A stretch of 64,000 nucleotides of DNA from Candidatus Latescibacterota bacterium (GCA_965217585.1 OZ244561.1:3392001-3456000); one strand, 5' to 3'. Positions 42,745 through 62,037 are shown, counted from the first letter of the stretch. Made by a program: numbers and translations. Notes: generated by a model not told the origin, from the letters alone.

Positions 42745-43155
42745 TCACCGTAGCCAGTGGAGAAAGTCCTTTGGGTTTATCTGCACGTTGTCGCATGGCT
42801 CAACGGGATCATATGATACCCACTGCTCATCGTCGAGTTGCTCGAAAGAAGCCGACGGTACGGTGTACAAGAATCCAGGCTTAGACGTGTCGAGGGAGCC
42901 TGCTTCTAAGTGAATCTCAGGCTCGTCCGCTTGAAATGATACTCGAAAGCTAAGGTTATTATTCTCGTTCGGGATGAACGGCAGGGAAAATACTATGGCG
43001 AGATTTTGAATATGGGTAGCATAGACGGCGTGCAAACGGTCTTTTTCTGGTCCCACTCCTCTCGCCGGACTAGGTTCGATACGATCAAGTTTTTCAGGAC
43101 TTCCGTGATAGAGGTAACGTGGTTTGGCGATCTGCATTCCGGTTTCTGCTAACAA
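42745..43155 (-). CDS. Hypothetical protein (YLYHGS..VYAT motif, possible ADP-ribosyltransferase-like fold)
   Basis: Clean ORF with lower GC; YHGS, VYAT and G.LY motifs. Confidence 0.55.
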   Translation of the reverse strand: MLAETGMQIAKPRYLYHGSPEKLDRIEPSPARGVGPEKDRLHAVYATHIQNLAIVFSLPFIPNENNNLSFRVSFQADEPEIHLEAGSLDTSKPGFLYTVPSASFEQLDDEQWVSYDPVEPCDNVQINPKDFLHWLR

Positions 43156-43261
43156 TCACACCCACAAGGGATCGAGGAAGCTCGGCATCGATGATAAAAC
43201 GCACAGCGATCAGGACAGGATAGCCTCTTTGCTGACAAAAAAGATACGAAAGATGCAATAG

Positions 43262-43621
43262 CTACTCCAGGAAGAACAAGGCATTCGCCGGGTTCGCATG
43301 TGGAGCCGGGGCGTCGATACTCAGCGCTTCCACCCCCGCCACCGCGATCTGCAGATGCGGACTCGCCTTAGCGGCGACCAGCCCGAGAAAAATCTGCTGC
43401 TCTACGCCGGCCGTCTAGCACCTGAGAAACAGGTGGAGACGCTCCTGCCCGTGCTCCAAAGCCGCCCCCACCTTCGCCTCGCGTTGGTGGGCGACGGTCC
43501 GGCTCGAGGCAAATTGGAAAGTCTATTCGCTGACACTGGGCCCGTGTTCACTGGCTACCTGCGCGGCACGGACCTTTCGCAAGCGTATGCCTCGGCCGAT
43601 TGCTTTGTTTTTCCCTCTACC
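43262..43621 (+). pseudogene. Internal fragment of a GT4 glycosyltransferase (SqdX/MgtA-like)
   Basis: WSRGVD..RFHP, LLYAGRLAPEK, LVGDGP and AYASADCFVFPST motifs. No N-terminal domain, and homology stops before the E-x7-E motif. Confidence 0.8.
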
Positions 43622-43809
43622 GTAGCTGGGGTACGGCGCGATCCAAATGGTCGCGGTCATGCCGGACAATCTCGATTGGCAGAGATCCACCGCTGCGGTG
43701 GGGTTGAGTAGTCGCCGGTTGGGTGTGGAGCTACGTCTAGGCGACTCCCTGTAGATGAATGCTTGTTTCTCGCTCAGTAGCCCATCGGACCGCTGTCGGC
43801 TAGCGGAGG

Positions 43810-44290
43810 CAAAGTCGACGAACCAGGGAAAGCCCTTGCGCCGCACCTGCCGCCCTACACTGCATAGTAAAAAAGCCTCGGACGGTAAAGATCGCCCGCC
43901 CAAAAACACTTGGTCTCGCCCCGGGCGCGGATGGCTCGCAAAGCGCTCGAGGTCAATGCCGTTGGGTATGATGTGCAGCTTGGCCGAGTCTAGCCCTCGG
44001 TCTAGGCACGCCTGACCGGTAGCCGCACTCACCGCCACTACGGCGTCCAGCCGCGTAAAGGCCTGCTCCAAAGTCCACTGGTAAGGAGGGAAAGACCACA
44101 AGGCGTCCAAGCCGTGGGCAATGGCCACCGTTTTGACTCCCGAATCGCGCAACAGCCGCTCTAGTGGCACCGCTAAAACGCCGCAGATGAGCGAAGAGAA
44201 CAGCACCACATCCACGGCCTTCTGCTCTATGTTCTCGGATGGGATTCTCTGGTCGGAGCAGTCAGGCTGGAACCACTCGGGCCGCTTCAC
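43810..44290 (-). pseudogene. Internal fragment of a second GT4 glycosyltransferase
   Basis: AHGLD, VAVS..T, IIPNGID and SVGRQVRRKG motifs, after which homology is lost; N-terminus missing. Confidence 0.75.
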
Positions 44291-44322
44291 TTCTCCCGCT
44301 TGGCCCCTTTAACTCCCGACGC

Positions 44323-44972
44323 CTAGAAGCCAAAGTTGAGCAAGCCAGCCATCCACAGACTAGCGCCTAGAACGGCCCCGGCCATAGTCTGAGCCGGCGA
44401 TCCCAGATAAATCCGCGCCCATGCCACCACCGGTACGATCGCTAACAACCAAGAGGAAGTCAGCCCTAATAAGTAGAACCCCAATACGGCCAAACTTGCT
44501 ACTGCGGTGCAGTGGGCGCTGATCTTCCAGCGCAGGGTTATGCCGAGAAACAAGACGAGTTGGATCAGATTGAGAGCCGCTAAAAGTACCAGCAGACGCG
44601 GGGCCGATGCACTGTAGAGCAGCCCTAGGGAAAGAGGGCTGGTCAGCAAGGCGGCTACCAAGGGGCGGAAACGCTCGGATCGCACATTGAGATGGGGATC
44701 GCTCACCCACCCCCGGTGGTAGAGATAGACGATGTAGAGGGTGGGTAGTGCAGCCGTCAGCAGGATGTGGATTCCTCCCCACAGCCAAGCGTCGGGCCGG
44801 TTCAGACAGGATGAGGCCAATAGAATGCAGACCGCCGATACCAGAGGGGGGCTAAGGATTTGGGACAGAATCTGGGCGATGTGATAAGGCAGCGGTAGGG
44901 CCGCGCCTTTGGACAGGACAGTCGGCTGAGAAATGGCCTTAGATCTTCGTTCTTGGATCAGAATACACTCAT
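44323..44972 (-). pseudogene. PAP2-like membrane protein, probably frameshifted near its start
   Basis: WKISAH and WAR..L motifs. The RBS-linked ATG at 44972 is out of frame with the body (ATG AGT GTA TTC TGA), and the body frame is open up to it. Confidence 0.55.
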
Positions 44973-45065
44973 GGGAATGTCCTCATTAATAAAAGTAGTG
45001 CTTATCTGTGGGTGTTTGGTGACACGACTTGAAGATCTGATGACCATCTTGTTAAGAATTAGACA

Positions 45066-45096
45066 GTCCTCGGTTTGAGTCCGGGAGGCGACTCCA
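45066..45096 (+). other. Degenerate tRNA-like 3' remnant (T-arm, acceptor strand, CCA)
   Basis: CTCGG-TTTGAGT-CCGGG T-arm followed by AGGCGAC-T-CCA. No matching 5' acceptor strand upstream. Confidence 0.45.
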
Positions 45097-45250
45097 ATAA
45101 AAACAAGGAGTTATGACAAACATACCATAGCGGCGAAAAAGTCGTGTCAGCAATATGTCAGCAATAAGTAGAAGGAATCCAATGCTACGTATGCTGTTCA
45201 AGCTGTTGTCGCTATTCGGTCGTGAGCCTCTTTGAAATCTGAGAGAACCG

Positions 45251-45289
45251 AAAAAACCCCGTGCCGGGAGATTTGGCACGGGGGTTTTT
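45251..45289. terminator. Bidirectional intrinsic terminator
   Basis: AAAAAACCCCGTGCC-gggagattt-GGCACGGGGGTTTTT. Confidence 0.9.
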
Positions 45290-45315
45290 AATAGCCCTCG
45301 TCAAAAAAATTATTT

Positions 45316-45391
45316 GTCGGGTAGGCGGAGCCTGTCACCAGTTCCCGCCCCCCTCAGAACCGTGCGTGCGACTTTCACCGCACACTGGGTC
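45316..45391 (-). mobile_element. Group II intron 3' remnant (domains V and VI)
   Basis: Minus strand reads GACCCAGTGTGCGGTGAAAGTCGCACGCACGGTTC-TGAGG-GGGGCGGGAACTGGTGACAGGCTCCGCCTACCCGAC: DV with GAAA tetraloop, DVI with bulged A, and an ..AC 3' end. No RT ORF. Confidence 0.85.
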
Positions 45392-45427
45392 CCGTGTGGC
45401 CAGGTTTCGCCTCAGCCGCAAGAAAAA

Positions 45428-45955
45428 TCAAAAATCGGAATTATTCTGTTTTAAGGTTTTGATTTGTCCCCACGAGGTCTCGTCCACAACCGTAGCCTGA
45501 TTGGTTTCTGAACAAGGAGCCGACGAACACAAACAACTTTCCTGCGTCTTGTCGTTGATATGGTAGCTGGTGCATAACCGGTATGGCTCGTCCGGGTTAA
45601 AATCCTCGCACAGTCTGGAGCGGCCGCAGCTAAAATTCTGATCCGTTGCATTGTCTGGCGTGACCAACGAACAGGGAGTAGAAGAATATTGCCTGTCCGC
45701 TATATACAGATTGCACTCCCAATCTAAGGCAAACGTGATCCAAGCATATTTCGGATATGGTGTATTTCTATCTATATATTCCCAAGAACAAAAACGATGA
45801 TCGGGATTTAAGCCACAATCGAAGCATTGATCCCAGAACATCTCGCCACAATAGACCCTGTCGTGTTCGGCTTGGCCCAAGTTGATCGAAAGCAGGAGCA
45901 CAAGCACCGTGAGGATCGTTGCAGCTTGCAACGTGCGTAGTATTGATTTGTTCAT
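45428..45955 (-). CDS. Secreted Cys-rich (12 Cys) protein with C-terminal TVVDETSWGQIK tail
   Basis: RBS AAGGAGG, signal peptide GQA|E, lower GC. Confidence 0.75.
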   Translation of the reverse strand: MNKSILRTLQAATILTVLVLLLSINLGQAEHDRVYCGEMFWDQCFDCGLNPDHRFCSWEYIDRNTPYPKYAWITFALDWECNLYIADRQYSSTPCSLVTPDNATDQNFSCGRSRLCEDFNPDEPYRLCTSYHINDKTQESCLCSSAPCSETNQATVVDETSWGQIKTLKQNNSDF

Positions 45956-46038
45956 TTGTGTCCTCCTTCGTTTAGGTTGAGGTGGGAAGGCCAAGCATGG
46001 GACGGGAGTGCGCGGGTCGTTGCCCGGGCACGTGGTCG

Positions 46039-46130
46039 CTATTCTTCCTCCACCGTCGTTTCTTCGACCGGCTCCGGGTATTGGGGTACGAGTTGACCTC
46101 GCGGATCTCGCAGCCGACTACCAGAGGCAA
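46039..46130 (-). repeat. Repeat B copy 1: frameshifted relic of the small GCEIR lipoprotein
   Basis: Reads LPLVVGCEIREVNSYP / 1-nt shift / YPEPVEETTVEEE*. Homologous to 48551-48620 and 51449-51610. Confidence 0.75.
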
Positions 46131-46193
46131 AAACGTCCGTCCGCGTGGTTAGTCGATAGGGTCGGGTTCCTAGTCGTCACGTACTAACCGGTT

Positions 46194-46702
46194 CTACTCT
46201 ACGCGGTAGCGAAAAAACTCGCCGTTTCCCCAAGGGAGCAATCCATAGATAAAGCAGTCAGCCTCGTCGGCCGCTACTGTCGGGTAGTTGCTTTGCAAGC
46301 GATGTACTAGGTGGCGCTCCACCCATTCAAACCTGAAAATAAACACCGTCTCATCTACCAGTCCGGTTCGATAGGTCTCTATGAGGATGATGTCGGACTG
46401 CTCGCCGGCATCGGGGAATCGTCCGTAGAGCGGGTCATTCCTGTACAGATACCCTTTATGCTCCTTGCCCCATTGTATCGGAGCCGAAAACTGTGCGATA
46501 GGTTCTTCGCCGATCTTGCCGAACAAATAGGTGAGCTTATCGGCAATCATGCACAGAGACGTAGTTCTCCCGTCTGAGGTCTGCCGGTTGAACCACGTAG
46601 GACCTATGCACCTGTGCTGCACGAGCGATCGGGCTCGTGAGCTAGCGGAGGATCCGCTGAGCAGGACGCCAGCAGGAGAAGGGCAACGGATAGGTAGCGC
46701 AT
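46194..46702 (-). pseudogene. Frameshifted hypothetical lipoprotein
   Basis: MRYLSVALLLLASC signal (ATG 46702) stops after 32 codons; the body continues in the 46194..46622 frame. Confidence 0.55.
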
Positions 46703-46747
46703 GTCGGGGCCGCGCGACCGCGGATCCTTTCTGAATACACCGTTGAT

Positions 46748-47320
46748 TTAAAACCCCACCAGCACAATAAGCCGAGGAGAGGGTATCTGCACCCTCAGAG
46801 TCCTTATCTCATTAGTTGCGACATTATGAGGGTCGTCCCCGTCTGGCAAGTTCTGGCTCTGGTATTCAATGTCGAGCTCGAGCCCTTGTCGCAAGGCTAT
46901 GCCCACTCGGTTGACCGGACGCCAGAGGACGCCGAAGCCGAGGCCGAGGCCGAAGTCCCATTGTCCCGTCCCAAACTCGCGCTCATCTCCCCAGCGTCTT
47001 TCGTGTCCGTCGAAGAAAGCCGACTGGTATCCGAACCATGAGACTTTTTTGCTCAAGGAGGCCAGCTTCTTGCGCGTCAGCGAGATCCGAGCCGACAGCG
47101 TGTTTTCCTCTATCTCGCCGCTGTATGATCCGAAGTCGATAACCTCATTGGTCCCCCTCAACCGTTCCAGTTCGACGCCCCACATAGTTCGGGTCATAGG
47201 ATTAACATGCCACAGGCTGATCCCTCTTTCAAGGATACCTAGGCCGACGGCTCCGTCAGCGGACGACGCGCTCGGGGATAGGGTAATGAGCAGGAACGAT
47301 AAGTGCTTCAACATCACCAT
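46748..47320 (-). CDS. Small outer-membrane beta-barrel-like protein
   Basis: RBS GAGGAGG, signal peptide, amphipathic strands (WDFGLGLGFGVLWRP, VGIALRQ), C-terminal Phe. Confidence 0.65.
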   Translation of the reverse strand: MVMLKHLSFLLITLSPSASSADGAVGLGILERGISLWHVNPMTRTMWGVELERLRGTNEVIDFGSYSGEIEENTLSARISLTRKKLASLSKKVSWFGYQSAFFDGHERRWGDEREFGTGQWDFGLGLGFGVLWRPVNRVGIALRQGLELDIEYQSQNLPDGDDPHNVATNEIRTLRVQIPSPRLIVLVGF

Positions 47321-47428
47321 CCTCCTCTCTTGTAGTGATTCACCGCCTCACAGTAATACCATCTGGCGGTGTATTACTTAAACACCTCCAGCGGGGCGGG
47401 GCGTTACCTGTGCGGTGGATTTTTGTCG
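47321..47428 (-). repeat. Repeat C copy 1 (about 108-bp leader ending in an RBS)
   Basis: Near-identical to 52097-52226, which carries an extra ~22-bp insert. Confidence 0.9.
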
Positions 47429-47443
47429 CCAATCCCTTCCGAT

Positions 47444-47472
47444 ACCGGCGGCCAGCAGCCGTCGAGAAGGCA
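47444..47472 (-). repeat. Repeat A copy 1 (~30-bp imperfect palindrome)
   Basis: ACCGGCGGCCAGCAGCCGTCGAGAAGGCA immediately after the stop of 47474..48550. Confidence 0.8.
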
Positions 47473-47473
47473 G

Positions 47474-48550
47474 TCACAGCAGCTTTCCGATCTCCTCGAT
47501 GCGTTCGACCACGGCCTCGAGTACCGCGTCCGCCGCGACGCCGACCGGCAGATAGATCGGGATCACCAACTCATTGTCCGCAAATTCATCAAATAGTTCA
47601 GGAGGAGTCTTCAGACCGAGCGGCTTGAGATTGTCGCGTATTTCACTGAAGGGCTTCACGCCCTGCCAACGATCGCCCTCACCATATAAGTAAAGCCAGA
47701 GGGGGGTATCCCGGACCGTGGCCCACTTGTCGTGGTCGATCCCAAACCATGCACCTGCTCCGGAAAGTTTGAAAGCGTACCCGTATTCAGTACGCAAGGA
47801 GTACAGATTTCCGCTGTCTGCTGCCAATTCTTCCCTTTCCAAGCGTTCGATAACATGGTTGACGAGATTCTCTAGACTGATTAGGCGGCGCGGGATTTCC
47901 GAGCCGAGTTCCCCCGGCCGCAGTGGCAGGAAGGCGTCTTCGTCCATCTGCTCGGCAAGTCCTCGCAACTGCTGGATATTACACTCCGTGTGCGATTCTC
48001 CGGCGATGCTTACTTGGGAGTCCATACGATCAAGCAGTTCCGCCCAACTGGTCAGCATCAAACGGCGTTTGCCGCCAGCAGTGGCACTCCGAAGTCCTTC
48101 CGCCTCGTTACGGTCTGGGCCCAACTCGATACCTGATTCCGACTCCGATACTTTCCGGCATAACTCAGCCCATAGCGCATCCAGCCGCGCGGACGGCGCA
48201 ACGAACAAAAGCGCCGATGCTTGATTTTCCGGTAGTCGTTTGAGATAGGCGACCGGCTGGTTATCGGTAAGCCCAGCCCAGAACTTCGCCTCGATCAGTA
48301 CGCGCTCTTGGGTATGCTGGTCGAAACCGGCGAGATCCGGCCGCGTCCCCTCTTCGCCGCTGACCTGCGTTTTTACCCGAGCGATTTTCCCAACCTCCTC
48401 GCCATCGGTTCGCAGCACGTCCGAAAGGGCGCGCCGAGCCGCTTCGGACTCCGACAGGATGTGGCCAAGGGCCTCGACCGCGATGTTTTCGGTCTGATGG
48501 CCGAATATTGGCGCGAGCTTCGCGAGCAGCGTCTGGTTTTGTCGTTGCAT
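47474..48550 (-). CDS. PD-(D/E)xK nuclease-superfamily protein
   Basis: Start re-set to MQRQNQ. ENIA.E.L..IL, RPDLAG and VLIEAKFWAGLTDNQP..YL motifs. Confidence 0.75.
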   Translation of the reverse strand: MQRQNQTLLAKLAPIFGHQTENIAVEALGHILSESEAARRALSDVLRTDGEEVGKIARVKTQVSGEEGTRPDLAGFDQHTQERVLIEAKFWAGLTDNQPVAYLKRLPENQASALLFVAPSARLDALWAELCRKVSESESGIELGPDRNEAEGLRSATAGGKRRLMLTSWAELLDRMDSQVSIAGESHTECNIQQLRGLAEQMDEDAFLPLRPGELGSEIPRRLISLENLVNHVIERLEREELAADSGNLYSLRTEYGYAFKLSGAGAWFGIDHDKWATVRDTPLWLYLYGEGDRWQGVKPFSEIRDNLKPLGLKTPPELFDEFADNELVIPIYLPVGVAADAVLEAVVERIEEIGKLL

Positions 48551-48620
48551 TCTTCTTTCTCCATCGTCGTTTCTTCGACCGGCTCCGGGCAGGCGGATCT
48601 CGCAGCCGGTGGCTAGTAGC
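48551..48620 (-). repeat. Repeat B copy 2 (internally deleted)
   Basis: Reads LLATGCEIR / deletion / CPEPVEETTMEKE. Its GGAG end abuts the ATG of the nuclease gene. Confidence 0.75.
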
Positions 48621-48703
48621 TCAGCGGAGGGGTATAGGCGGTTAAATCGCAGAGCCAGTCCATGTCTTGCAGGGAGCTGGTTACGCCGGCGGCTGCGATC
48701 GCG

Positions 48704-48738
48704 GCGACCGGGGGCCAGCAGCCGTCGATAAGGCGCAG
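48704..48738 (-). repeat. Repeat A copy 2
   Basis: GCGACCGGGGGCCAGCAGCCGTCGATAAGGCGCAG downstream of the Mrr-like gene. Confidence 0.8.
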
Positions 48739-48807
48739 GCGAAAAAGCCGCGGTGCGGGGGCGATTCCAAGCTCGGCGACTCGACGCGCACGAAGTACAC
48801 GCCGAGG

Positions 48808-49737
48808 TCATAGCGACGTGAACCAATCCTTGTCCACCTCTACCACCTCTACCTCGACCCTTTTCGTTTTTGTGCTCACGCCAAGGTCGAGTTGTTTTAT
48901 TTTGTCGATCAGTAATTCGCCGTCGATCAAGTCTATCGGCGTAGTTCCTGGCTTTTGGGCTTCTACTTGCGCATTTTCCGAGAAGCGGCCTGTTGTAAAG
49001 ATGATGCCCTTTTCCGCCGATCCTCCTATCGCCCCACGAAAGTCTCTGACGATTCTTGGGCTGATGCTGCCAGCGTATCGCTTGCACTGAAACAGCACAG
49101 TAACGTTAGCAAGTCCCGCGAGGCTGATTACTGCACGCCCGTCAATTCCCTCGTCTCCCGGTCCGTCTGTTAGCTCAACTGGGGTAAACCCCGATTTCTC
49201 TAGAAGTCTTTTGCATAGCCGTTCAAATGCCAACGGTGTAATTTCGAGGAGGGTATTCAGCAAGTGCTTGCGCCAGTCCGCGGATTCTCCCATTGGGCTT
49301 TCGTCTCTCTCGGCTGGGGATGCGTCGGCCTTGGCTTCTGCTTGCTGTTTTTGCTCGGCAGCACTCGTTTGGCTCTTAAGTTTTGGTTCCTCCTTTTCCC
49401 GTTTGGTTGAATCAGCCGCACTACAGTCGCATTTATCTATCGTCTCTTGGAGTTTCGAGAAAGTTGTAGAGGAGAACGAATCCCGGTGGCGTTTTGCGAA
49501 ACCTTTAAGACCGCGTCCGCACGCCTTAGCAGAGCCCTCTGAAGTAGGCACAAACCCATCCACAATTGCCTTTATGTCTCTCCGAGCATTATAGACGAAT
49601 CCGTGTGTCTTAACGTTCAACTTTTCCGCTATTTTCTTTGCATTTAACCCCTTCTCACTGAGCCGCCATACTTGTCCGAGTCGTTTTTCGTCCTTATTAA
49701 GTGCGCTTTTCACTTCCTCCAGATACGTATCGCTCAT
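48808..49737 (-). CDS. mrr: Mrr-family (type IV) restriction endonuclease with atypical HTH-like N-terminus
   Basis: FERLC..LL...GF, GDEGIDG, FQCKRY, VRDFRGA, GI..TTG.FS..A and IDLIDG motifs. Confidence 0.8.
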   Translation of the reverse strand: MSDTYLEEVKSALNKDEKRLGQVWRLSEKGLNAKKIAEKLNVKTHGFVYNARRDIKAIVDGFVPTSEGSAKACGRGLKGFAKRHRDSFSSTTFSKLQETIDKCDCSAADSTKREKEEPKLKSQTSAAEQKQQAEAKADASPAERDESPMGESADWRKHLLNTLLEITPLAFERLCKRLLEKSGFTPVELTDGPGDEGIDGRAVISLAGLANVTVLFQCKRYAGSISPRIVRDFRGAIGGSAEKGIIFTTGRFSENAQVEAQKPGTTPIDLIDGELLIDKIKQLDLGVSTKTKRVEVEVVEVDKDWFTSL

Positions 49738-49771
49738 GGTAGTGTCTCCCTTTGATTTCAGCGCCAGCAAC

Positions 49772-49795
49772 CGCGGCGACCGACAGCCAGCAGCC
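49772..49795 (-). repeat. Repeat A copy 3 (partial)
   Basis: CGCGGCGACCGACAGCCAGCAGCC. Confidence 0.6.
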
Positions 49796-49894
49796 TTTGT
49801 TCTAACGCGCGGGATTGTACTGAACAGAGGCAGGCGGTCAAGATGCCCACCTGTTCACTTTTATTTTTTTATCCCTCGCTCATGGTATAGCCCG

Positions 49895-50725
49895 CTACCG
49901 CCCTTCTGAGAACACAAGAAGTTCTGCGCCAAGCAGAATACGCGCTATCGCTTGGGCCTTTCCCACAGGGTCGAGGTCAAGTTCACTGAAATAATCCCGC
50001 GGCCCTTCCAAGACGTGTATCACCTGCTCAGTAAAGTGCGTTAGCTGTGCCTCAATCGACGTCCCTGCTTCGATGTTTAAGGGCTGGGCAGGCGGCTCTT
50101 TCAAAATTAATCCCTCTACTCCATCTAAGTCCGGTTCCTGTAATTGCCGATGAGGAGGCTCAAACCCATGCTCGGTTATCTCTCCCCAATTAGACGGACT
50201 GCCGATTTTAATAGGATCCGAGAACAATACTTCTCCAGTACCATCTTTGTTGAATACAAAGTTATGGTTGTCCCGGTCGGGAAGTTCGATCTCAGAGGGC
50301 TTTACACGCTGGACTCGACTATGTAAGGTGCGCATTTTGAAGCAATCATCGAGGGTTTTTCGCCGATAAAACCGAGGGGCGACATACTCGACGCGCGTGT
50401 TGTAGCGCATCTCAAGATCACACAGCAGATTGTGTTGCTCGCTCTTCTTTTCCCCGTAGATCAGGAACCTGTAATATGGCAAGGGGTACCCTCGTACCGC
50501 CTCCCGGGCATTGGGCCTTTCCATATACTCCGATAGTTTGAATTGTGCGCAGTAGATGAAGCCCCCGACCCTGTCCAAGCGGACATCGTAGCCGACACCT
50601 TCCTTTCCTCCTTCCTCGGCCAGACTCGGTAGCCTGGGAGACTGTATGAGGTTTCTCTTCCACTTAGTTGCAACTTCAAACGTGTATGCGAATCCAAAGC
50701 TGAACTCCGAAAATTGTGCCTTCAT
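49895..50725 (-). CDS. Hypothetical protein with PD-(D/E)xK-like motif
   Basis: SEFSF, PSL.EE, GYDV.LD, AQFK.S and QH.LL..LE..YVAP.F motifs; lower GC. Confidence 0.6.
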   Translation of the reverse strand: MKAQFSEFSFGFAYTFEVATKWKRNLIQSPRLPSLAEEGGKEGVGYDVRLDRVGGFIYCAQFKLSEYMERPNAREAVRGYPLPYYRFLIYGEKKSEQHNLLCDLEMRYNTRVEYVAPRFYRRKTLDDCFKMRTLHSRVQRVKPSEIELPDRDNHNFVFNKDGTGEVLFSDPIKIGSPSNWGEITEHGFEPPHRQLQEPDLDGVEGLILKEPPAQPLNIEAGTSIEAQLTHFTEQVIHVLEGPRDYFSELDLDPVGKAQAIARILLGAELLVFSEGR

Positions 50726-50839
50726 CCGTTTTCTCCTTCAGTTGTAATGGGCAAAGGGCGCATTATTGGCAGGAGTTGACGGCCACGCCGCCGGTATCGT
50801 ATCTTCGCGGTACATGGAGGATTGAGAGGATGATTGAAC

Positions 50840-51016
50840 ATGACCGAATTAAGTGACCGTGTCTCGCGGCTAGAAGGGGCATACGAACACCTAGCCACCA
50901 AAGCCGATATAGGCGAAGTCAAAACCGAGATTGCCAGCCAAATAAACAAGGCTATCGGCATACTAATCGCCGCTATTGTCGCGGTGGCGGCGCTTTTCAA
51001 ATACCTCCCCGGCTAG
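50840..51016 (+). CDS. Small coiled-coil protein with C-terminal membrane anchor (DUF1640/CCDC90-like)
   Basis: RVSRLEG..LATKADI..K.E followed by a hydrophobic C-terminal helix; RBS GAGAGGA. Confidence 0.65.
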   Translation: MTELSDRVSRLEGAYEHLATKADIGEVKTEIASQINKAIGILIAAIVAVAALFKYLPG

Positions 51017-51205
51017 GATCTCGGCGGTCGTTTATCACACGCCATACTCCCGATAACGCCGTGTATCGCTAGTAAGTCGGCCTATTTTTGGCGGCGATCG
51101 CCGCGGCCGTGTTTGGTTTTCGGCCATTTCGGAACTGCGAAAAGGGCAGATTTAGGCCAAATCAGCCGATCCCGTCTTAAGCTACAACGGGCTGTTGATT
51201 TAGAC

Positions 51206-51241
51206 GCGACCAGCGGCCAGCAGCCGTCGAGACGGCACAGG
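51206..51241 (-). repeat. Repeat A copy 4
   Basis: GCGACCAGCGGCCAGCAGCCGTCGAGACGGCACAGG just downstream of 51258..51446. Confidence 0.8.
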
Positions 51242-51257
51242 TTGGTCTCGGTCATGG

Positions 51258-51446
51258 TCAGAAGTGAATGATCGTCAACAGTCGAGGACTTGGCATACGG
51301 AGCAAGAGGGTCTTGGTTGTCTTCGGCCACGCGACATCCGGCCTCGAATCCCGATCCCGCACCTTGTGCTGATACTCAAGGGCTACCCCCTGTCTCAAGG
51401 ACACGCTCACGTTCTTCAGCGGTCGCCAGAGTGCGCCCACGCCCAT
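51258..51446 (-). pseudogene. C-terminal fragment of a paralog of the 46748..47320 beta-barrel
   Basis: GVGALWRP..V...LRQG..LEYQ...PSPRL....F aligns with GFGVLWRP..V...LRQG...IEYQ...PSPRL....F. Confidence 0.75.
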
Positions 51447-51448
51447 CG

Positions 51449-51610
51449 CTACGCCCGCATATCCTCTTCTCCGAACACAAAATCCTCTTCTTCCAGCGGC
51501 TCTTCTATCAGGTCTTCCACCAGCGGTTCCGGGCAGTTGGGATACGATTTAACGACGCGGATCTCGCAGCCGGTGGCCAAAAGCAACAAAGCTAGCAGTA
51601 TGCCTAACAT
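51449..51610 (-). CDS. 53-aa acidic lipoprotein (intact repeat B copy; absent from the ORF track)
   Basis: MLGILLALLLLATGCEIRVVKSYPNCPEPLVEDLIEEPLEEEDFVFGEEDMRA*; RBS GGAGGAGG. Confidence 0.65.
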   Translation of the reverse strand: MLGILLALLLLATGCEIRVVKSYPNCPEPLVEDLIEEPLEEEDFVFGEEDMRA

Positions 51611-52089
51611 CCTCCTCCCACACGATCTATGAGTTCTCGTACCACCATTCTCACAGCCTTGCCCACCGCTTTGTCCCGCTCGTCGTCGTCATACGTTCCC
51701 CTCCCTATCGACTCGTATTGCCTCAGCAGCACCGCCCCCTCGAAGGATTTTATCTCGACGGAGACCACCATAGAGAACTGGTATTGCCCCAGTACTCTAC
51801 CCCGGGTGTGGACGCGATCATCAACGGAGAGGATGTCGAGATAGAGGATGGCGTCGGCCCCTCCCTCGTCGGCCAAGCGCAACTGCCCGTCCTCTCGGAA
51901 CGCCACGACTGTGGCTCGGATCAGGCTATCGGCAGCGGCGTATTCTGCCGTCTGGTTGCCCACAAAGGGGATGGCGATGGTGTCGATGCCGCCGCCTAAG
52001 ACGCCTCTGTAGGGCCCGTGGTAGCAGCCGATGGCCAGCAGCAAAAGGGTCAGCAGCAGTCTATAACGACTACCACTTGATTTAGCCAT
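51604..52089 (-). CDS. LptE-like lipoprotein
   Basis: LLLAIGC lipobox; IDTIAIP...NQT.EY, F..DG.L.L...ADAIL...I motifs. Confidence 0.65.
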   Translation of the reverse strand: MAKSSGSRYRLLLTLLLLAIGCYHGPYRGVLGGGIDTIAIPFVGNQTAEYAAADSLIRATVVAFREDGQLRLADEGGADAILYLDILSVDDRVHTRGRVLGQYQFSMVVSVEIKSFEGAVLLRQYESIGRGTYDDDERDKAVGKAVRMVVRELIDRVGGGC

Positions 52090-52096
52090 TTTCTCA

Positions 52097-52226
52097 CCTC
52101 CTCCCTTGTAGTGATTCACCGCCTCACAGTAATACCATACGTGCAACCAAGTATTTCTTTCTGGCGGTGTACTACTTAAACACTTCCAGCGGGGCGGGGT
52201 GTTACCTGTGCAGTGGATTTTTGTCG
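52097..52226 (-). repeat. Repeat C copy 2
   Basis: Matches 47321-47428 and supplies the stop codon of the GFA gene. Confidence 0.9.
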
Positions 52227-52618
52227 TTTCCCCCACGGGGAAATTTATGCAGGCCGTCAGGAATCTTGGACCACGGGACTGCCATTTCGGTCCAGATCTC
52301 TCGGGTGGGTCGCAGATCTTCAGAATGGTCTAGGGTGCCCGCCTTGATAAACACCAAGTCGGGGTAACGTGTGAACAATTGCGAGCCACACTCTGGACAG
52401 AATTCGCGAATCTTTGTGCGGCCTTCGTCATTCGTAGATTCGTATCCCTTGGTTTTACCGCTCAGTTGAAATGTGGACGCTGGTACGCCAACTCCAACGT
52501 TGAAAGCGCTGCCCGTAACCCTACGGCAGTCGTCACAGTGGCAATAGGTCACAGATTGGGGCTCTGAGTCGCTTGTATAGCTGACCGCCCCGCAAAGACA
52601 TCGACCTGTTAGCGGCAT
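52202..52618 (-). CDS. GFA/CENP-V family Zn-binding protein
   Basis: GRCLCGAV, CHCDDCRR and FCPECGS motifs. Confidence 0.9.
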   Translation of the reverse strand: MPLTGRCLCGAVSYTSDSEPQSVTYCHCDDCRRVTGSAFNVGVGVPASTFQLSGKTKGYESTNDEGRTKIREFCPECGSQLFTRYPDLVFIKAGTLDHSEDLRPTREIWTEMAVPWSKIPDGLHKFPRGGNDKNPLHR

Positions 52619-52697
52619 TGGTAATCCTTTCCAGATAAATGAGTGTGCCGATTGTGGCAAATGTGTTCAATTCACAACGTTTGCTGATCTACAAGCT

Positions 52698-53350
52698 TTA
52701 TCTTTTGACAGCGAAGAAAAATGGATGAACCTCCTCCGGCGCATCAACATTTCCAAATCCTCCTCCTACGATACCTCCCTGTTCAACCTGAAACCCAGTC
52801 TCGGTAAGAAATTTCTTGTAGGTCGGGGGGCCAAAGTTGCTCCAGTACATGGTCTCGCCGAAGAAGTCATCTTCAGTATATCCAGGCCCGTCGTCTTTCC
52901 TAGCAATCGTAAACAGAAGTAGACCACCGGGCCGAAGCCACTGTGCAAATCGACGAAAGAGGTTCAGATGCTCCTGTCTTGGGATATGGAAGATGGCGTA
53001 AAAGCTGACAATTGCATCAAAGCTACATGCGGGGAATTCGGTCTCCATTACGTCGGCGATGATGAATTTGGCTGTGGGGACGTTTTCCTTAGCTAGAGCT
53101 ATCATGTTTGAGGAGATGTCGATCCCGGTGGGGCTGAATGTCTCTGCAAGATGTTGGGCGACCGGGATACCAGCACCACATCCACGTCGAGAACCTTTGA
53201 ACTAGGAGCCAGACGCTCAGTTATCAAGTTGAGCTCCGCTCCAGGCGTAGTACGTTTTTGCCCCGAGTAATCCATCGCACACCGGTTATAGGCGGTTCTT
53301 ACCAACTCCCGATAATCGGCGTCCGGATCGTCAGCAATCTTGAATGGCAT
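52698..53350 (-). pseudogene. Class I SAM methyltransferase with a 1-nt frameshift in motif I
   Basis: The two ORFs join at ~53182: GAC GT GGA TGT GGT GCT GGT restores VLD(V)GCGAG, followed by GIDIS..M, FDAIVSFYAIFH and LRPGG. Confidence 0.85.
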
Positions 53351-53438
53351 GGGTTTCTATCCTAAATCACTTCACGTGTTACGGATGATTCGAAAAGCGG
53401 TGCGAACAGTGCTATTAAATGCTGGAGCCACCTAACGC

Positions 53439-53912
53439 TCATGCTCCTACGGCGACAGGCTTATCTGGCGGTCCGTTCTTGGATATACTCTCAAGCAGAC
53501 AATGAAGATTGCGAGGAGCGAACTTCTCTGCGGACCTAGCGATGGCGTCGATTGACCACCAATGAAACCCGCGGAACGCCGATGCCTCGCCAGGAGCCGC
53601 CTCCACGTCTATTACTGGATCAAATTGGTCTGCTTGTACGAGATAATAGACTTCATTTTGGCTATAGCTTCGACCGTTCCAAGAGAATTCGTGTTTTCTG
53701 GTCCATACGGGTGGTCCCAGACGAAAATTCCTAGCGCCAGTCTCTTCGGCGATTTCTCGCCGTAGTCCTTCTTCATCAGATTCACCGGGTTCCAAGCCTC
53801 CGCCGGGCGTAATCCAAACCTGAAATCCTGTGACAGGCTCTTGGAGCTTCATCAGCAGTACTCGATGATCCGGCGTCATAATGACCGCGCGTACAGCCTT
53901 GCGTTGAATCAT
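53439..53912 (-). CDS. NUDIX hydrolase
   Basis: GGGLEPGESDEEGLRREIAEETG Nudix box. Confidence 0.9.
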   Translation of the reverse strand: MIQRKAVRAVIMTPDHRVLLMKLQEPVTGFQVWITPGGGLEPGESDEEGLRREIAEETGARNFRLGPPVWTRKHEFSWNGRSYSQNEVYYLVQADQFDPVIDVEAAPGEASAFRGFHWWSIDAIARSAEKFAPRNLHCLLESISKNGPPDKPVAVGA

Positions 53913-54167
53913 AGGTGTGTCTGTTCGATGGTTAATGGCCGTTATCTGACGCGAAGGTACTTACTCGTGTGAACAGTTGCAATTGGTACCACGGGGCTGA
54001 AATATTCTGCGTTCGCCTACTCAGCAGCGAAGGCGGCACGAGCGTAGGACAGACGCCTCAGATCGCCCCGCGACCCGCCTCCGAGCGGTCTGGCGCATGG
54101 GTTCCTTTTTCCTTTTCTTGCCCATTTCACTCCGCTGTATAGAAGCTATCAACAAAGGATTCTCCCT

Positions 54168-55187
54168 ATGCCCGCAAACAATCGCCCGGTGCGCGTCGGC
54201 ATCTATGGCACCGGCCGTTTCGCCAACCAAACTCACCTGCCTAACCTGAGTAAGCTAGACGATGTCGAACTGGTCGCTGCGAGTGATCCCAATCCGGACA
54301 ATCTCGCCGACACCGCGCAAAAATACTCCATCACCCGCACCTATGCGGACCCTCACCAAATGCTCGCGGAGGAGCAACTCGACGCACTCTACTCGATCGT
54401 GCCGGCTTTTGCGCGCACCGATGTGGAAGCCACGGCCGCAGCGCAGGGCATCCACCTCTTCAGCGAGAAACCGCAAGCGACTATCATGGCTGTTGCGCGG
54501 CGCATTGCCGATGCGGTCGCCGAGGGCGGCGCGATCTCAACGGTCTGTTTCCGCGAGCGCTACCGCCCGCTCTTTCAGGAGGCTCGCCGCCTGCTCGCGG
54601 ATAAGGCCGTCACCCACATTTGCTTCCAGAGCACGGCCGGCCTGCCCCTGCTCGAAGCCGAGGTCCCCGACCCGGACAGTTGGGACTATCAGATGGACAA
54701 GGCCGGCGGCTCGGCCTTCGACTGGGGGGTTCACGCCGTTGACTATGCGCGCTTTATGAGCGGCCTCGACATTACCCAAGCCCAAGCGTTTTACTACCAT
54801 CCCCCTCGGTATAACACGCCGCTGTCGTGTTCGTTTAATTTTTTGTTGGCAAACGGGGCGACCATGACCTCGACGTTCCTCGCCACCACGCCCGCCACCC
54901 CGGGCGACGAGCCGCGCTTCACCGTTTTTTACGAGGGAGGATACTTGGCGCTGTGGCTGTACGACCGGATTGAGGTCAATGGCGAGGTCGTGTACGCGCC
55001 GGAGGAATTCGACCCGTGGTTTGAGCAAGATCGCGTCTTCATTGAGGCCGTGCGCACCGGCAACCGCGCCCTGCTGCTCAACGACTATGCCGACGGCCTC
55101 TATTCGCTAGCCCCGGTACTGGCGGGGTGGGAGTCGGCGCGGCGCGGCGGCGAATTGATTGCTGTGGCCGAAGTTATGGCGAGCTGA
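54168..55187 (+). CDS. Gfo/Idh/MocA family oxidoreductase
   Basis: VGIYGTG, EKP and GG..FD.GVH..D motifs. Confidence 0.9.
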   Translation: MPANNRPVRVGIYGTGRFANQTHLPNLSKLDDVELVAASDPNPDNLADTAQKYSITRTYADPHQMLAEEQLDALYSIVPAFARTDVEATAAAQGIHLFSEKPQATIMAVARRIADAVAEGGAISTVCFRERYRPLFQEARRLLADKAVTHICFQSTAGLPLLEAEVPDPDSWDYQMDKAGGSAFDWGVHAVDYARFMSGLDITQAQAFYYHPPRYNTPLSCSFNFLLANGATMTSTFLATTPATPGDEPRFTVFYEGGYLALWLYDRIEVNGEVVYAPEEFDPWFEQDRVFIEAVRTGNRALLLNDYADGLYSLAPVLAGWESARRGGELIAVAEVMAS

Positions 55188-58152: not shown

Positions 58153-58617
58153 TTATTCTTCTAGGAACTTAACCAGAAATTCCTCTAAGGTACTTCTATT
58201 GAATTCCCACCGTACAGGTTTCCCGGATCTGCCCTCTCTTCTCGCAAAGTCCCACTCGTCATTTCCTCTATGCAGCAGCATTGCGAGAAGGGTGCTGCCC
58301 GAGACCACATCGACTCGTCCTTGAGTACCTATAATAAAACGCCCGACCGGTCTGAAGGTGAGAATCTGGCTGTCTAAAAAGACAAGTCGTAGATATCGGG
58401 TTTCGTAATCCCCAAGCTGGTCTTCCCGAATCGGAATATCCTCTGACTGGATCTCCAGCCAGTTTTTGTCTTTAAGAGGCTGCAACCACTCAGTTATCCT
58501 CGACATAAGCTTTTCGCAGTTGGCTATCCATTCCTGACGAACTGCTACATGTTCAAATTCCGACGCTTCCTGTTGCTCTTGTTTCTGCTTCAGTATCTCT
58601 TCAAGTAGTTTGGCCAT
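58153..58617 (-). CDS. Hypothetical protein, coupled upstream of the HEPN gene
   Basis: RBS AAGGAGAG and 2-nt gap to the HEPN gene. W.....L...I..WL, I.E..LG.Y and PVG..IIG..GRVD motifs. Confidence 0.7.
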   Translation of the reverse strand: MAKLLEEILKQKQEQQEASEFEHVAVRQEWIANCEKLMSRITEWLQPLKDKNWLEIQSEDIPIREDQLGDYETRYLRLVFLDSQILTFRPVGRFIIGTQGRVDVVSGSTLLAMLLHRGNDEWDFARREGRSGKPVRWEFNRSTLEEFLVKFLEE

Positions 58618-58762
58618 TTATATCTCTCCTTTGCTATAATCTGAACGAGATATGGTCTGCTGTCGAAGACCGAGACCGCACGGTCAGCGGTAAGGCAGTA
58701 CGCTCCTTCAATATCCAATCGACTGGATTGCCACGCAATGGCTAGGTCGACCGCCTGGCTCG

Positions 58763-58937
58763 GCCACCGCCATGGCGAGTTCTGGGTCAGCGCGTCCTTG
58801 AGAAAGCTAAACACGTCGAGTAGCGTTGACTTGCCCGTGCCGTTCGCGCCCACGACTACGACCATCGGGGGTAAGTCCTCAAACACGGCATGGTGGAAGG
58901 AACGGTAGTTCTTGATTGCAATCTGCTCAATCCGCAT
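58763..58937 (-). pseudogene. Truncated duplicate of the 5' end of the AAA ATPase gene
   Basis: 58763-58945 is near-identical to 63142-63325 (MRIEQI..GANGTGKSTLLDVFSFLKDAL), then frameshifts. Confidence 0.9.
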
Positions 58938-59199
58938 AAGTTGTTTGATGTTATGAGGGCAAATCATGATCTGGATTGGGTGTATCGAATGCAACAAAAA
59001 ATCATTAAAGAGTTTCCAGAAATCGAAAACAGGGCAAGAGAACGTGGAATTTCCTTTGGTAAATCGCCCCGGTTCGAGTTGCGCTTCATAGGAGAAACCT
59101 TTTGTGCAGTAGAAAGTTATAGCGGATATAACCTTCCTCTCTCTTATCCGTAGACATCAAACTAGGTGGTTTTGAGAGTACATTCGAGAATTTTCATCA

Positions 59200-62037
59200 T
59201 TAGCCATTCCTCAAGTTCAGCTCCAGTAATTCGCCCAGCGCCTCGTCCTCCGAAGTGCCCGCGTCCCACCCATACGCCTCCGCCACAGCCGCGTCGAGTG
59301 CCGCATGAGCATCGACAAGCCATTGCGGGCGGGCGTTGTAAAGGTTGGTCAGCGTGCGTTGCTTGAGTTCCTTCGCCGTTGCCTCGTCGCGGGGCACTGG
59401 GCGCTTGGGATAGCCGGGAACCGGCTCGTCCACCCATTCCACCCATTCGGACGGATTGAGCCAGCGGTCGCGCAGTTCGACTAGTCGTCGCGCTGCTTCG
59501 GCGATGGCAACAGCACGAGGATCATTCGCGTAATCCAAAGCCGGAATGTCGGGCGATAGCCCTTCGGGAAAGGGGAAGGTCTCGAAAGTGGTGGTCGGCG
59601 TGTAGCGCGGACGATCCTCTAGGCTGGTGCCGAGCCGTAGCGACCACGCCTCGTGAAAGCGGCTGTGCAGGATGCCGAAGGTGGTGTCGTCGTCGCGGGC
59701 GATGACAATTAGCTGATGATCGGGGCAGATGCGGGCGTCGAGCCAAGCGAACAGACGGTGCTTGGCGACGGTGGGCGTAGCGATGTAGCGCGACAGGCTG
59801 TCGAGTGCGTCCCACATCCCCGGTCTCGGCTCGACATGCCTCCACCAATGGATGCGGTAGGCTTCGCGGCGGTTCCGTTGCCGCATTGGATAAACGTGCT
59901 CCTTTGCATGTTGAAACGGTGCCTCGTAGAGCACTGCTTCCTCTTGCCCCATGCTCCAGCCAAAATCGACGATCCATTTGTCAGCCGGTCGGCGGGTCAA
60001 GTCCATGCCATTTACCCACGGCCTGAGAACGTCGGAATTGGGCCGTCCGTTCGGGTTCGCAGGCTCGCGAAGCCATTCCCGGGCCTGATCTCCGGGCACA
60101 TTGAAGGGGCCGCCCTTAGTGTCGCCCATGAACGCAACGCCGATGTTCCGGCATAACCGTTGCACCTTGGTCAGATCAACGTTCCCTGTCAGATCGGAAT
60201 GGACCGCATCCACAAGCTGGCCATTGAGTCGCCGTTCCAACTCCGCTCCATCATCCGGTCCTGAGAAACACACCAAGGAGACGCGTACCGCCGCCCCATC
60301 AATCACCCACGGCTCATCGCTCCACGCCTCAAAGATCGAACAGGCCCCAGTCGCGGTCTGCAACGCCCGCCGATTCGCCCCGCCGCGAATGGAGTTGGTT
60401 GAGACGAGACCGACGCGCTTCGCCTTGCCTGATCCGATGTGTTCGCCAGCCTTGACGAACCAGTAACAGACGAGATCGGCCTCCGCTGGTACGCGGCCCT
60501 CATACACCCTGAAAATGCTTGAAACGTAGTCTTCGCCAAGATTGGCCTTGAGAAGTTTTCCTCCGATAAACGGCGGATTGCCGATCACCGCATCGGCTGC
60601 CGGCCATTCCGGTTCTTCGCCGTCCGGTGTCAGGATCGCATCGCGGCATTCGATGGTATCGAGCGGCTTGAGGACTGGATTGTTCGTCCCAGGATAGCCG
60701 TTGCGTCGCATCCACTGGATGTGTCCGATCCACACCGACACGCGCGCTAATTCGGCGGCGTAGGCGTTGATTTCGATCCCCTTGACGTTGGCCGGGCTGA
60801 CTTCGGGAAACGAGCGCTGGAGGTCAAAGGCTTCGGCCTCCAGTTGCACCCGATGCTCCAAGTCCTTGAGCGCGTGCAAGGCGACGTAGAGGAAGTTGCC
60901 CGAGCCGCAAGCCGGGTCGAGGATGGTGAAAGAGCGGAGGCGCTGTAAGAAAGCGTCCTTGCGCTGCTCGGCCCGACTGCGTTGGCGCGTCCGGGCAGCA
61001 GCAGATCGGGCAGTTTCGGCTCGTTTCAGCGCGGCGGCGATTTCCCCTTTCTCCTTTTCCCATTCAGTCAGCCACGGGCGAATCACCACTGGCTCGACGA
61101 TCCGCATAATTTTATCGCGATCCGTGTAGTGCGCCCCCAATTGCGCCCGCTTATCCGGGTCGAGGCCGCGCTCGAATAGCGTGCCTAGGATGGAAGGATC
61201 AATCTCCGACCATTCTAGGGTCGCCGCTTGGAGCACCGTGTCGATCTCGGCCTTTTTTAGTGGAAGGGCGGCATTGTCGTCGAACAGCCCGCCATTAAAC
61301 CAAGCCACCGGCTCAAAGCCAACCCGCCCGCCGGTGGCCATGGCAGCGAACAGATCGCGGGCCATGGCGGCGAACTCCTCTGGCTGCTGCCGCGCCTGCT
61401 CCAACATCCGCGTGAACAGATTGTTCGGCAAAAGGCCCACGTCCTCGGCGAACATGCAGAACACCAGCCGGTTGATGAAATGCGCCACCGCCTGCGGGTC
61501 ATGGCCTCGCTCCCGCAAGGCTTGCGCCAGCAACGCAAAGGCCGTAGCTGCCCGCTCGGTGAGCGCCTGCCGGGTCTCATCCGGTCGCAGTCGCTTAGGG
61601 TCGGCGAGCGCCCACTTGAGCTTGTCGCGGACGGCGGCATCGGCTAAATCGTCGACCTCGAATTCGTGGGTCTTGCTAACGCTGTTGGTCCAATTGGTGC
61701 GGATGCGGAACTGCCGCATGTCGGAGACGATCAAAAGCGGCGGGTTTTCCAAAGCCAGCGCGTATTGCCTAAGTTGGTCGAAGGCCGCGTCTAAGTTGGC
61801 ACGCGGGCCCTTGTACTCCCAAGCGAAGCAGTGTCGCTTCCACACGTCGGCCCAACCATCGCCGCCGGTTTCCTTGCGAGCACCCTTCTCAAAGCAATAC
61901 GTCTCGCCCGTGGGGTCAGCCTCGGCCGGGGTTGGCTCGCCGAGCAGGCGGCACAGGTCGATAAAGTGCTCCTGAGCGGCCGAGCGTTCCTTGAGTTCGG
62001 CGGCACGCCACTTGGTGATGAATACCTCTGGAGTCAT
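59200..62037 (-). CDS. MmeI-like fused restriction endonuclease/N6-adenine methyltransferase (type IIL/IIG)
   Basis: N-terminal AD..EYK nuclease-like motif; LGAHYT, LDPACGSGNFL, GNPPF and ADL..YW motifs; C-terminal TRD (RYTPTTTFETFPFP, LTNLYN). Confidence 0.9.
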   Translation of the reverse strand: MTPEVFITKWRAAELKERSAAQEHFIDLCRLLGEPTPAEADPTGETYCFEKGARKETGGDGWADVWKRHCFAWEYKGPRANLDAAFDQLRQYALALENPPLLIVSDMRQFRIRTNWTNSVSKTHEFEVDDLADAAVRDKLKWALADPKRLRPDETRQALTERAATAFALLAQALRERGHDPQAVAHFINRLVFCMFAEDVGLLPNNLFTRMLEQARQQPEEFAAMARDLFAAMATGGRVGFEPVAWFNGGLFDDNAALPLKKAEIDTVLQAATLEWSEIDPSILGTLFERGLDPDKRAQLGAHYTDRDKIMRIVEPVVIRPWLTEWEKEKGEIAAALKRAETARSAAARTRQRSRAEQRKDAFLQRLRSFTILDPACGSGNFLYVALHALKDLEHRVQLEAEAFDLQRSFPEVSPANVKGIEINAYAAELARVSVWIGHIQWMRRNGYPGTNNPVLKPLDTIECRDAILTPDGEEPEWPAADAVIGNPPFIGGKLLKANLGEDYVSSIFRVYEGRVPAEADLVCYWFVKAGEHIGSGKAKRVGLVSTNSIRGGANRRALQTATGACSIFEAWSDEPWVIDGAAVRVSLVCFSGPDDGAELERRLNGQLVDAVHSDLTGNVDLTKVQRLCRNIGVAFMGDTKGGPFNVPGDQAREWLREPANPNGRPNSDVLRPWVNGMDLTRRPADKWIVDFGWSMGQEEAVLYEAPFQHAKEHVYPMRQRNRREAYRIHWWRHVEPRPGMWDALDSLSRYIATPTVAKHRLFAWLDARICPDHQLIVIARDDDTTFGILHSRFHEAWSLRLGTSLEDRPRYTPTTTFETFPFPEGLSPDIPALDYANDPRAVAIAEAARRLVELRDRWLNPSEWVEWVDEPVPGYPKRPVPRDEATAKELKQRTLTNLYNARPQWLVDAHAALDAAVAEAYGWDAGTSEDEALGELLELNLRNG

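Follow-up and report, generated by a model that had tools for sequence, protein, structure and literature searches.

A short intergenic repeat in a mosaic island of a Candidatus Latescibacterota bacterium as a possible reused promoter/leader module

This work concerns repeat A, a short intergenic sequence that occurs four times in one orientation within a 64-kb stretch (the window) of the genome of a Candidatus Latescibacterota bacterium (G000, a single contig, C1, of 7.32 Mb). An initial annotation of the window had described it as a ~30-bp imperfect palindrome following each of four minus-strand genes, and had taken it for the recombination site of a non-integron array that stockpiles defence genes by means of a recombinase acting in trans. 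Our analysis partly confirmed the observation and partly supported this first interpretation. The reading to which we give a chance somewhat short of even is that repeat A is a promoter/5' leader module of the gene located downstream, reused in a recombination-prone mosaic island. The evidence that carries this reading is that repeat A remains linked to its downstream gene across genomes while the upstream neighbour changes, that it is conserved as a sequence and not as a hairpin, and that several copies are preceded by a promoter-like sequence.

That the window contains four copies on the same strand, as the initial annotation stated, was borne out. Its 25-mer, with up to three mismatches allowed, matched at 47441, 48704 and 51206, always on the plus strand, and never in 100 shuffles, and a repeat finder located the fourth copy at 49776-49811 (its start is not 49772, as first given), diverged to 67% identity with the reference copy. 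With a profile built from 12 copies, the four score between E 4e-12 and 3e-8. Searching all 7.32 Mb with the profile gave only five copies at E<1e-7, four of them within 3.8 kb and the sole extra one at C1:918590-918653; the genome has three exact matches to the 16-nt core, each of them inside the window. Therefore, with only five copies, repeat A is not a repetitive extragenic palindrome (REP) scattered genome-wide, which the initial annotation itself had set against its own proposal. A link to the cyanobacterial HIP1 through GCGATCGC, which lies within the repeat, was rejected as well, since the count was 241 against ~214 expected. No Rfam family matched any copy at E<=1.

The unit is larger than first proposed: it consists of a ~40-nt core, far better conserved across species than its flanks, inside 60 to 95 nt. 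Copy 1 (47422..47481, minus strand; nhmmer E 2e-11) overlaps the stop codon of a 358-aa gene and continues into the D2 leader, described below, of the next gene, and the order of A, D2 and gene is also found in G068, G020, G021 and G024. Copy 2 (48650..48785, minus strand; core 48688-48746) is the most complete, has a weak hairpin and a T-run at its upstream side, and is 83.5% identical over 79 nt to C1:918570-918648, which precedes a different gene. Copy 3 (49756..49819, minus strand) is diverged and of the promoter type, and it ends 18 nt ahead of the start codon of a gene for an Mrr-type endonuclease. Copy 4 (51191..51250, minus strand) is homologous over its left 36 to 45 nt only and runs on into a non-coding module of ~170 nt that is also found in G068 and G024; a proposed split of this copy by a ~97-nt insert was not borne out by the alignment.

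When 76 genomes of the family, 31 of them from the genus of the window, were searched with a sequence-only covariance model, all 22 matches at E<=1.1e-6 fell in seven genomes of that genus (G000, G001, G010, G013, G020, G024 and G068), with one to six copies per genome, and the best match beyond the genus had an E-value of 3.5e-4. A pattern scan of a metagenome collection returned 32 loci with no true member among them, its six weak profile matches being look-alikes that read as coding sequence. A scan of a genome collection returned seven loci, six in four records of metagenome-assembled genomes from Latescibacterota and one candidate in a Burkholderia record. Repeat A is thus a low-copy, patchy, genus-restricted element.

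Three linkages between repeat A and a downstream gene are kept across genomes while the upstream neighbour differs. Repeat A together with the D2 leader precedes an LptE-like or barrel-like gene in G068, G020, G021, G024 and G000; it precedes the 'MHKVTVAL' lipoprotein gene in G000, G001 and G013; and it precedes a gene of 183 or 186 codons' worth of protein (the 183/186-aa gene) in G001, G013 and G020. At the last of these, the homology between G001 and G013 begins inside A, and the cargo upstream differs, being 848 bp in one case and 1835 bp in the other. The core therefore tracks the downstream gene, and the original assignment of the repeat to the gene upstream was probably the wrong way round in functional terms. 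Furthermore, the repeat does not belong to the cargo itself, as homologues in G002 and G065 of the PD-(D/E)xK-family gene that precedes copy 1 (77-80% nucleotide identity) carry none. The homology to these genes ends ~5 codons ahead of their stop, and so the G000 gene was truncated at its end and fused to repeat A. The downstream genes are unrelated across copies and about half of them encode exported proteins. In 11 of 34 profile hits a same-strand open reading frame (ORF) with a Shine-Dalgarno-like motif starts no more than 50 nt after the element, and in 22 of the 34 no more than 260 nt after it.

Directly upstream of copy 3 there is a sigma-70-like promoter (TTGACC-16 nt-TACAAT, 49814..49841, minus strand) with 10 of 12 matches, and in five copies, each from a different genome, such a -35/-10 pair immediately precedes the core; the four outside G000 are in G010 (L064), G001 (L074), G024 (L078) and G066 (L077). 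Likenesses to sigma-54 and ECF promoters, CsrA sites and ops/JUMPStart elements were weighed by eye only and set aside. In copies of this promoter type, a sigma-70-like promoter would fire into the core, which would form the first ~70 nt of the mRNA and end just ahead of the ribosome-binding site, while for the other copies transcription would probably enter from upstream. Repeat A would then be a genus-specific, low-copy intergenic module that serves as the 5' promoter/leader of the gene behind it.

The positions of the copies relative to the upstream genes could also indicate that repeat A is a 3' element of these genes, for instance a terminator, an insulator or an end that stabilises the transcript. 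The placement after four minus-strand genes noted in the initial annotation is true by position: the copies sit 3' of ORF stops at 47474, 48808, 49895 and 51258, copy 1 overlapping its stop and the remaining three starting ~8 to 73 nt past theirs, and in several copies a weak hairpin followed by a T-run lies at the upstream edge. However, a terminator scan listed no site at any copy of A, there is no stable hairpin, the T-run precedes the GC-rich core instead of following it, the promoter-type copies are without the T-run part, and the linkage is to the downstream gene. A role as a 3' element is therefore very unlikely. Repeat A is simply intergenic between tightly packed genes.

The palindromic character of the repeat, a central feature of the first description, was not confirmed. 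The hairpin proposed for it pairs in 82.5% of cells over the 22 copies, and 386 of 500 column shuffles equal that; for a central 14-bp palindrome, the observed pairing was matched by 312 of 500 shuffles. The RNAalifold consensus over the 22 copies reached only -3.16 kcal/mol with no compensatory pairs, and DNA folds of the four window copies on both strands gave z values from -0.78 to +1.2 against shuffles, with no excess stability. Neither RNAalifold nor the shuffles support an RNA structure of repeat A, and with no covariation and no extra stability, the short hairpin recombination site that had been proposed is not supported. In agreement with the initial annotation, the integron attC ends RYYYAAC and GTTRRRY, 50-150 nt apart, gave no pair on either strand of 43001-54200 (the shuffle mean was 1.5), and no attC end motifs are visible in the aligned copies. 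Repeat A is conserved as sequence and not as a hairpin, and for this reason the core most likely binds a trans-acting factor, which could be either a protein or an RNA.

Another possibility is that repeat A is a coding relic copied along with paralogous envelope genes, derived from a tiny upstream ORF or from the first part of a gene for a secreted protein or lipoprotein. One frame resembles a short arginine-rich peptide whose stop is shared in position by several copies, another resembles a hydrophobic signal-peptide stretch, the metagenome look-alikes are coding and one of them reads like a lipoprotein signal peptide, and the products of about half of the downstream genes are exported. Against this, substitutions show no 3-base periodicity in repeat A (0.17, 0.13 and 0.17 per phase), promoter-type copies are, by reading, without an in-frame start codon, the two resemblances need different frames, and the apparently synonymous changes came from unrelated genes. 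We therefore rejected coding as an upstream ORF or signal peptide, and consider it hardly probable that the repeat is a coding relic.

Several observations weigh against a promoter/leader module. A promoter scan of 45000-52400 found three sites where 3.8 were expected, and since the motif is not significant alone, only its conservation in five copies speaks for a promoter; the other copies have no recognisable promoter, and an upstream ORF stop lies within 100 nt in 20 of the 34 profile hits by a crude ORF measure. In addition, four observations bear on recombination. The Mrr gene is flanked by A on both sides in G000 and in G010, at different loci, and this fits recombination too, as does the replaced cargo of G001 and G013, one breakpoint of which falls at the left edge of the core. 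Of 422 pairwise alignments, 201 (48%) end in one 8-nt stretch at this same left edge, which is sharper than simple decay predicts. Finally, a contig of the public run X7, at 3.7x and with a shorter side of 40 nt, joins 48689, the right end of copy 2, to 46701. This joint and two others from that run, 47429/46659 and 52133/47363 (all at 3.7x, their sides short), could stem from repeats or related genomes, and they were not used as evidence.

The flanked Mrr gene, the replaced cargo and the clustered left ends also speak for A as the recombination site of a gene-cassette system other than an integron, in which units of a gene plus A are shuffled by a recombinase encoded elsewhere, for example a core tyrosine recombinase. 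Gene-A-gene-A arrays in one orientation are found in G000, G001 and G010, in variable regions, and a core tyrosine recombinase of unassigned role is present in 29 of the 31 genomes of the genus. The expectation that cargo would vary among strains also held, as the gene content beside the copies differs between strains and species. However, the joints do not have the form that recombination from repeat to repeat would give. In contigs of public runs from three studies that hold the island, in which rare circles or variants would not be visible, a 2815-nt contig of run X7, with three mismatches and a depth of 36.7 (like its flanks), joins 48885 to 49819, and the same joint is present in run X9 at a depth of 4.6. 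The resulting 933-bp deletion (48886-49818) takes away copy 3 together with most of Mrr; its ends lie in the promoter and in the interior of Mrr, share no letters, and are not in register with two repeats. In X7 the Mrr-deleted version is the main form. As its flanks are otherwise almost identical, this defence gene was lost recently. None of the 13 listed joints has the in-register spacing of A (1072, 1263, 1430, 2502 or 3765 bp), and across genomes the junctions fall at many differing positions within or beside A. Another X9 contig skips the entire array by joining 52232 to 45058, with 46 other letters between; 45058 is the edge of a tRNA-Thr relic described below. Of the public runs, nine contain at least 55% of the sampled words, and two RNA runs contain just 7-8%.

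The search for a recombinase gave no candidate either linked to repeat A or co-distributed with it. None of the window's scanned ORFs carries a recombinase domain, a linked recombinase being among the things that the initial annotation had suggested looking for. A PF00239 search of the genome gave no serine recombinase, so that a serine-recombinase site, an idea suggested by the central 14-bp palindrome, was rejected. The genome encodes five tyrosine recombinases, namely a XerD-like, a XerC-like, the third core enzyme mentioned above (C1:6415858-6416829) and two accessory ones; the accessory enzymes are present only in G000, G001, G004 and G022, which does not match the distribution of repeat A. 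With the integron-integrase model, the best of the five reached 126.8 bits against a cut-off of 265. With neither a structure signal nor attC motifs, and with cargo homologues elsewhere that are without A and a junction that cuts into coding sequence, such a cassette system is an unlikely explanation. A variant of it, in which units of an A leader and one gene are moved between hot spots by a trans-acting recombinase or a homology-guided pathway that reads the ~40-nt core as sequence, is quite unlikely; the hot spots would be the site downstream of rpoN, the sites beside tRNA-Thr and ssrA, and this island. If it did operate, each captured gene, defence genes included, would gain a ready-made promoter and leader.

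Under the promoter/leader reading that we favour, the array would have arisen by serial insertion, replacement and deletion of genes in a recombination-prone island. The recombination would be illegitimate, perhaps assisted by homology, with A-led expression units as the building blocks, and no dedicated site-specific recombinase would act on A.

The settings of repeat A in other genomes are varied. A second array in G010 has the order outer-membrane protein gene, A, shortened Mrr gene, A, small membrane-protein ORF, A, A. One copy in G010 adjoins a 150-nt miniature inverted-repeat transposable element (MITE) and a DDE_5 insertion sequence (IS), and one in G001 adjoins an IS630-type IS beside SNF2 and TIR genes, while a copy in G011 lies 1.2 kb from ssrA and one in G068 is located downstream of rpoN. 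The 150-nt MITE, which has inverted ends of ~20 nt (TTAGAAGCsTTTTTAAAACT), occurs in several copies per genome, and it adjoins repeat A in both G010 and G068, but on opposite sides (L073 ~4075-4232; L047 ~19122-19281). Such neighbours would suit an origin of the repeat in a small non-autonomous mobile element (MITE-like or retroposed) that has since decayed, with the nearness of the repeat to gene starts being incidental. Its patchiness, with strong matches in seven of the 31 genomes of the genus, and its fairly sharp edges, with a variable 5' extent and a steadier 3' end, point in the same direction. In contrast, the copy number is very low with no near-identical pair, the flanks of ~30 copies showed no terminal inverted repeats or target duplications on reading (which is not a formal test), and the 40-nt core is far more conserved than its flanks, which suggests selection. 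Furthermore, no pair of an empty and a filled site that differs by A alone was found: the search at three further copies met IS and MITE neighbours, and at the locus of the 'MHKVTVAL' lipoprotein only three genomes have the 5' part of the gene, with no empty site to compare. We consider a decayed mobile element improbable.

The array lies entirely inside a 9.1-kb mosaic island (43143..52235) that is specific to G000, a point in favour of the first interpretation. Sequences flanking the array are conserved across the genus, and between them the island is absent in all 10 congeners examined, in which the left flank joins 52228-52236 after ~0.1-1 kb that does not match the island; only G002 keeps a part of it, 51507-52235. 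Two copies of a leader sequence, D2/D6, are found in the island on the minus strand, one (47321..47428) upstream of a gene for a barrel-like protein of 190 aa (46748-47320) and the other (52097..52226) upstream of an LptE-like lipoprotein gene (~51607-52069). This leader, 105-130 nt long, occurs at eight loci in seven genomes ahead of LptE-like lipoprotein and barrel-like genes, the other loci being L061 4092-4198, L062 3063-3169, L067 3996-4114, L076 4095-4213, L066 1797-1913 and L056 2293-2372. Its predicted hairpins are mutually exclusive and resemble a regulatory switch. The leader has no Rfam match, and no covariation is visible, the copies being too alike. At 52202-52260 the frame of a GFA-family gene continues into the D2 leader, which supplies its stop codon, and the same junction is present in G002.

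The island also holds pieces of several other genes. A small acidic lipoprotein gene is intact at ~51449-51604 (~51 aa, a lipobox followed by 'EIR'), a broken copy of it (48553..48620, minus strand) lies directly ahead of the PD-(D/E)xK gene, and a second such remnant is at 46042-46133. The 3' half of tRNA-Thr(UGU) is present as an att-like relic at 45057..45101 on the plus strand; the intact gene is located at C1 5,080,078-5,080,153, and no tRNA gene was found in the window. The array of G010 adjoins the 5' half of the same tRNA-Thr(UGU) (L064 ~4701-4745, minus strand), and in both genomes the halves are broken in the anticodon loop. They look like relics of an integrase acting at the tRNA. 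No likeness between repeat A and the tRNA-Thr 3' half was seen by reading. An orphan group II intron domain V-VI (RF00029, 48.8 bits, E 3.3e-7) lies at 45316..45393 on the minus strand. In G001, a group II intron is inside one copy of repeat A and is absent from the same place in G020; this stretch (L009 10124-10875) is ~750 nt long with no long ORF, and 71 nt at its 3' end are 86% identical to the intron relic of the window.

The cargo of the array is nuclease-like in part, as the initial annotation had it for three genes. The identification of Mrr held firmly, the 309-aa protein (48808..49737, minus strand) being an Mrr-type (type IV) restriction endonuclease by Pfam Mrr_cat (E 1.6e-25) and PADLOC (mREase_IV); a shortened homologue lies between copies of repeat A in G010 (L064). 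The 358-aa protein (47474..48550, minus strand) belongs to a large family and had no Pfam or PADLOC match, and it is assigned to the PD-(D/E)xK family by a PD...EAK motif, found by reading, and by a 51%-identical homologue named PD-(D/E)XK nuclease by NCBI. The third, a 276-aa protein (49895..50725, minus strand), is only weakly PD-(D/E)xK-like. Residues E7, E38, D47, Q61 and K63 are invariant in 38 sequences, and its structure model has a pLDDT (predicted local distance difference test) of 85.7; Foldseek gave no match in the PDB at E<=0.001, and the top VIA rows for the model were Hjc resolvases with Z 4.3-4.5. The fourth gene, a 62-aa ORF (51258..51446, minus strand), was correctly described as a barrel fragment: it is the C-terminal part of a protein paralogous to the 190-aa barrel-like outer-membrane protein (37% identity, E 8e-14). 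The proposed stockpiling of defence genes did not extend to the other loci, where about half of the genes downstream of repeat A encode lipoproteins or secreted proteins and not defence genes. Further defence genes are present to the right of the island (58590-63395), namely an MmeI-family restriction-modification gene (59200-62037), a HEC-01-type ATPase (62115-63395; PADLOC E 1e-176) and part of another HEC-01-type ATPase gene (58590-58997). A 60-aa ORF on the plus strand (50834-51016) reads like a small membrane protein and has its own promoter-like site; in G013 it follows a repeat copy and has the same direction (L010 ~7044-7328), and in G000 it is inverted relative to the neighbouring copy.

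Some features of repeat A are shared with known systems. The one-orientation arrays recall integrons, whose attC arrays include near-identical chromosomal sites, such as the Vibrio VCRs (Vibrio cholerae repeats), and attC clusters without an integrase (CALINs, clusters of attC sites lacking integron-integrases). In both cases a short repeat in one orientation stands between unrelated, mostly short genes on one strand with variable content, and, as in CALINs, no integrase is near the array. However, repeat A is without the RYYYAAC/GTTRRRY ends, the long imperfect dyad, and extra fold stability or covariation, and the genome has no integron integrase, the junctions are variable, and there are only four units. 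In pdif modules, 28-bp dif-like sites flank the modules in alternating orientation, whereas all copies of repeat A in the window have one orientation, no dif site of this genus having been used for comparison. In tandem tRNA islands the att repeats are the 3' part of a tRNA gene, whereas repeat A is, by reading, unlike the tRNA-Thr piece. REPs and REPINs (REP doublets forming hairpins) are similar in being short GC-rich intergenic repeats after stop codons, but repeat A has five copies in 7.3 Mb and not hundreds, no hairpin signal, and is clustered in one island. The bacterial interspersed mosaic elements (BIMEs) of enterobacteria and the Neisseria intergenic mosaic elements (NIMEs) and Correia elements of Neisseria are mosaic intergenic repeats, and the DNA examined here is likewise composed of a few modules (A, the promoter part, the D2/D6 leader and the 170-nt module) in varied combinations, some of them with apparent promoter activity and associated with rearrangement points. 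In contrast to BIMEs and NIMEs, repeat A is present in one to six copies per genome, which is far fewer, and has no palindromic unit, and no link to a RAYT or a transposase was seen, although no search aimed at one was made. Correia elements and REPINs are mentioned as promoter carriers in PMC3575422.

The best-supported account is that repeat A is of a kind already described. Homologous regions ahead of unrelated genes are called 'putative mobile promoters' (PMPs) in PMC3575422, which describes the work of Matus-Garcia, Nijveen and van Passel (2012). The likeness lies in a very similar non-coding sequence upstream of unrelated genes, within and between related genomes, with no Rfam family and with the means of spread unexplained. 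For PMPs the identity is to be about 80% or more over 50 nt or more ahead of unrelated genes, and repeat A reaches 83.5% over 79 nt. Repeat A differs in ending 0-50 nt before the start codon, whereas PMPs are defined in the zone from -150 to -50, in forming tandem gene-A-gene-A arrays in a defence-rich island, and in having a recognisable promoter in only some copies.

If the promoter/leader reading is true, an uncultured phylum would offer a clear case of a single promoter/leader module that is reused before unrelated genes, and its reuse before horizontally acquired defence genes would bear on how newly arrived genes are expressed. It would also show that an array on one strand can have a repeat 'after every gene' without the repeat being attC-like. 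If, alternatively, the cassette reading were true, gene-cassette arrays would have a second way of being built besides integrons, one guided by sequence.

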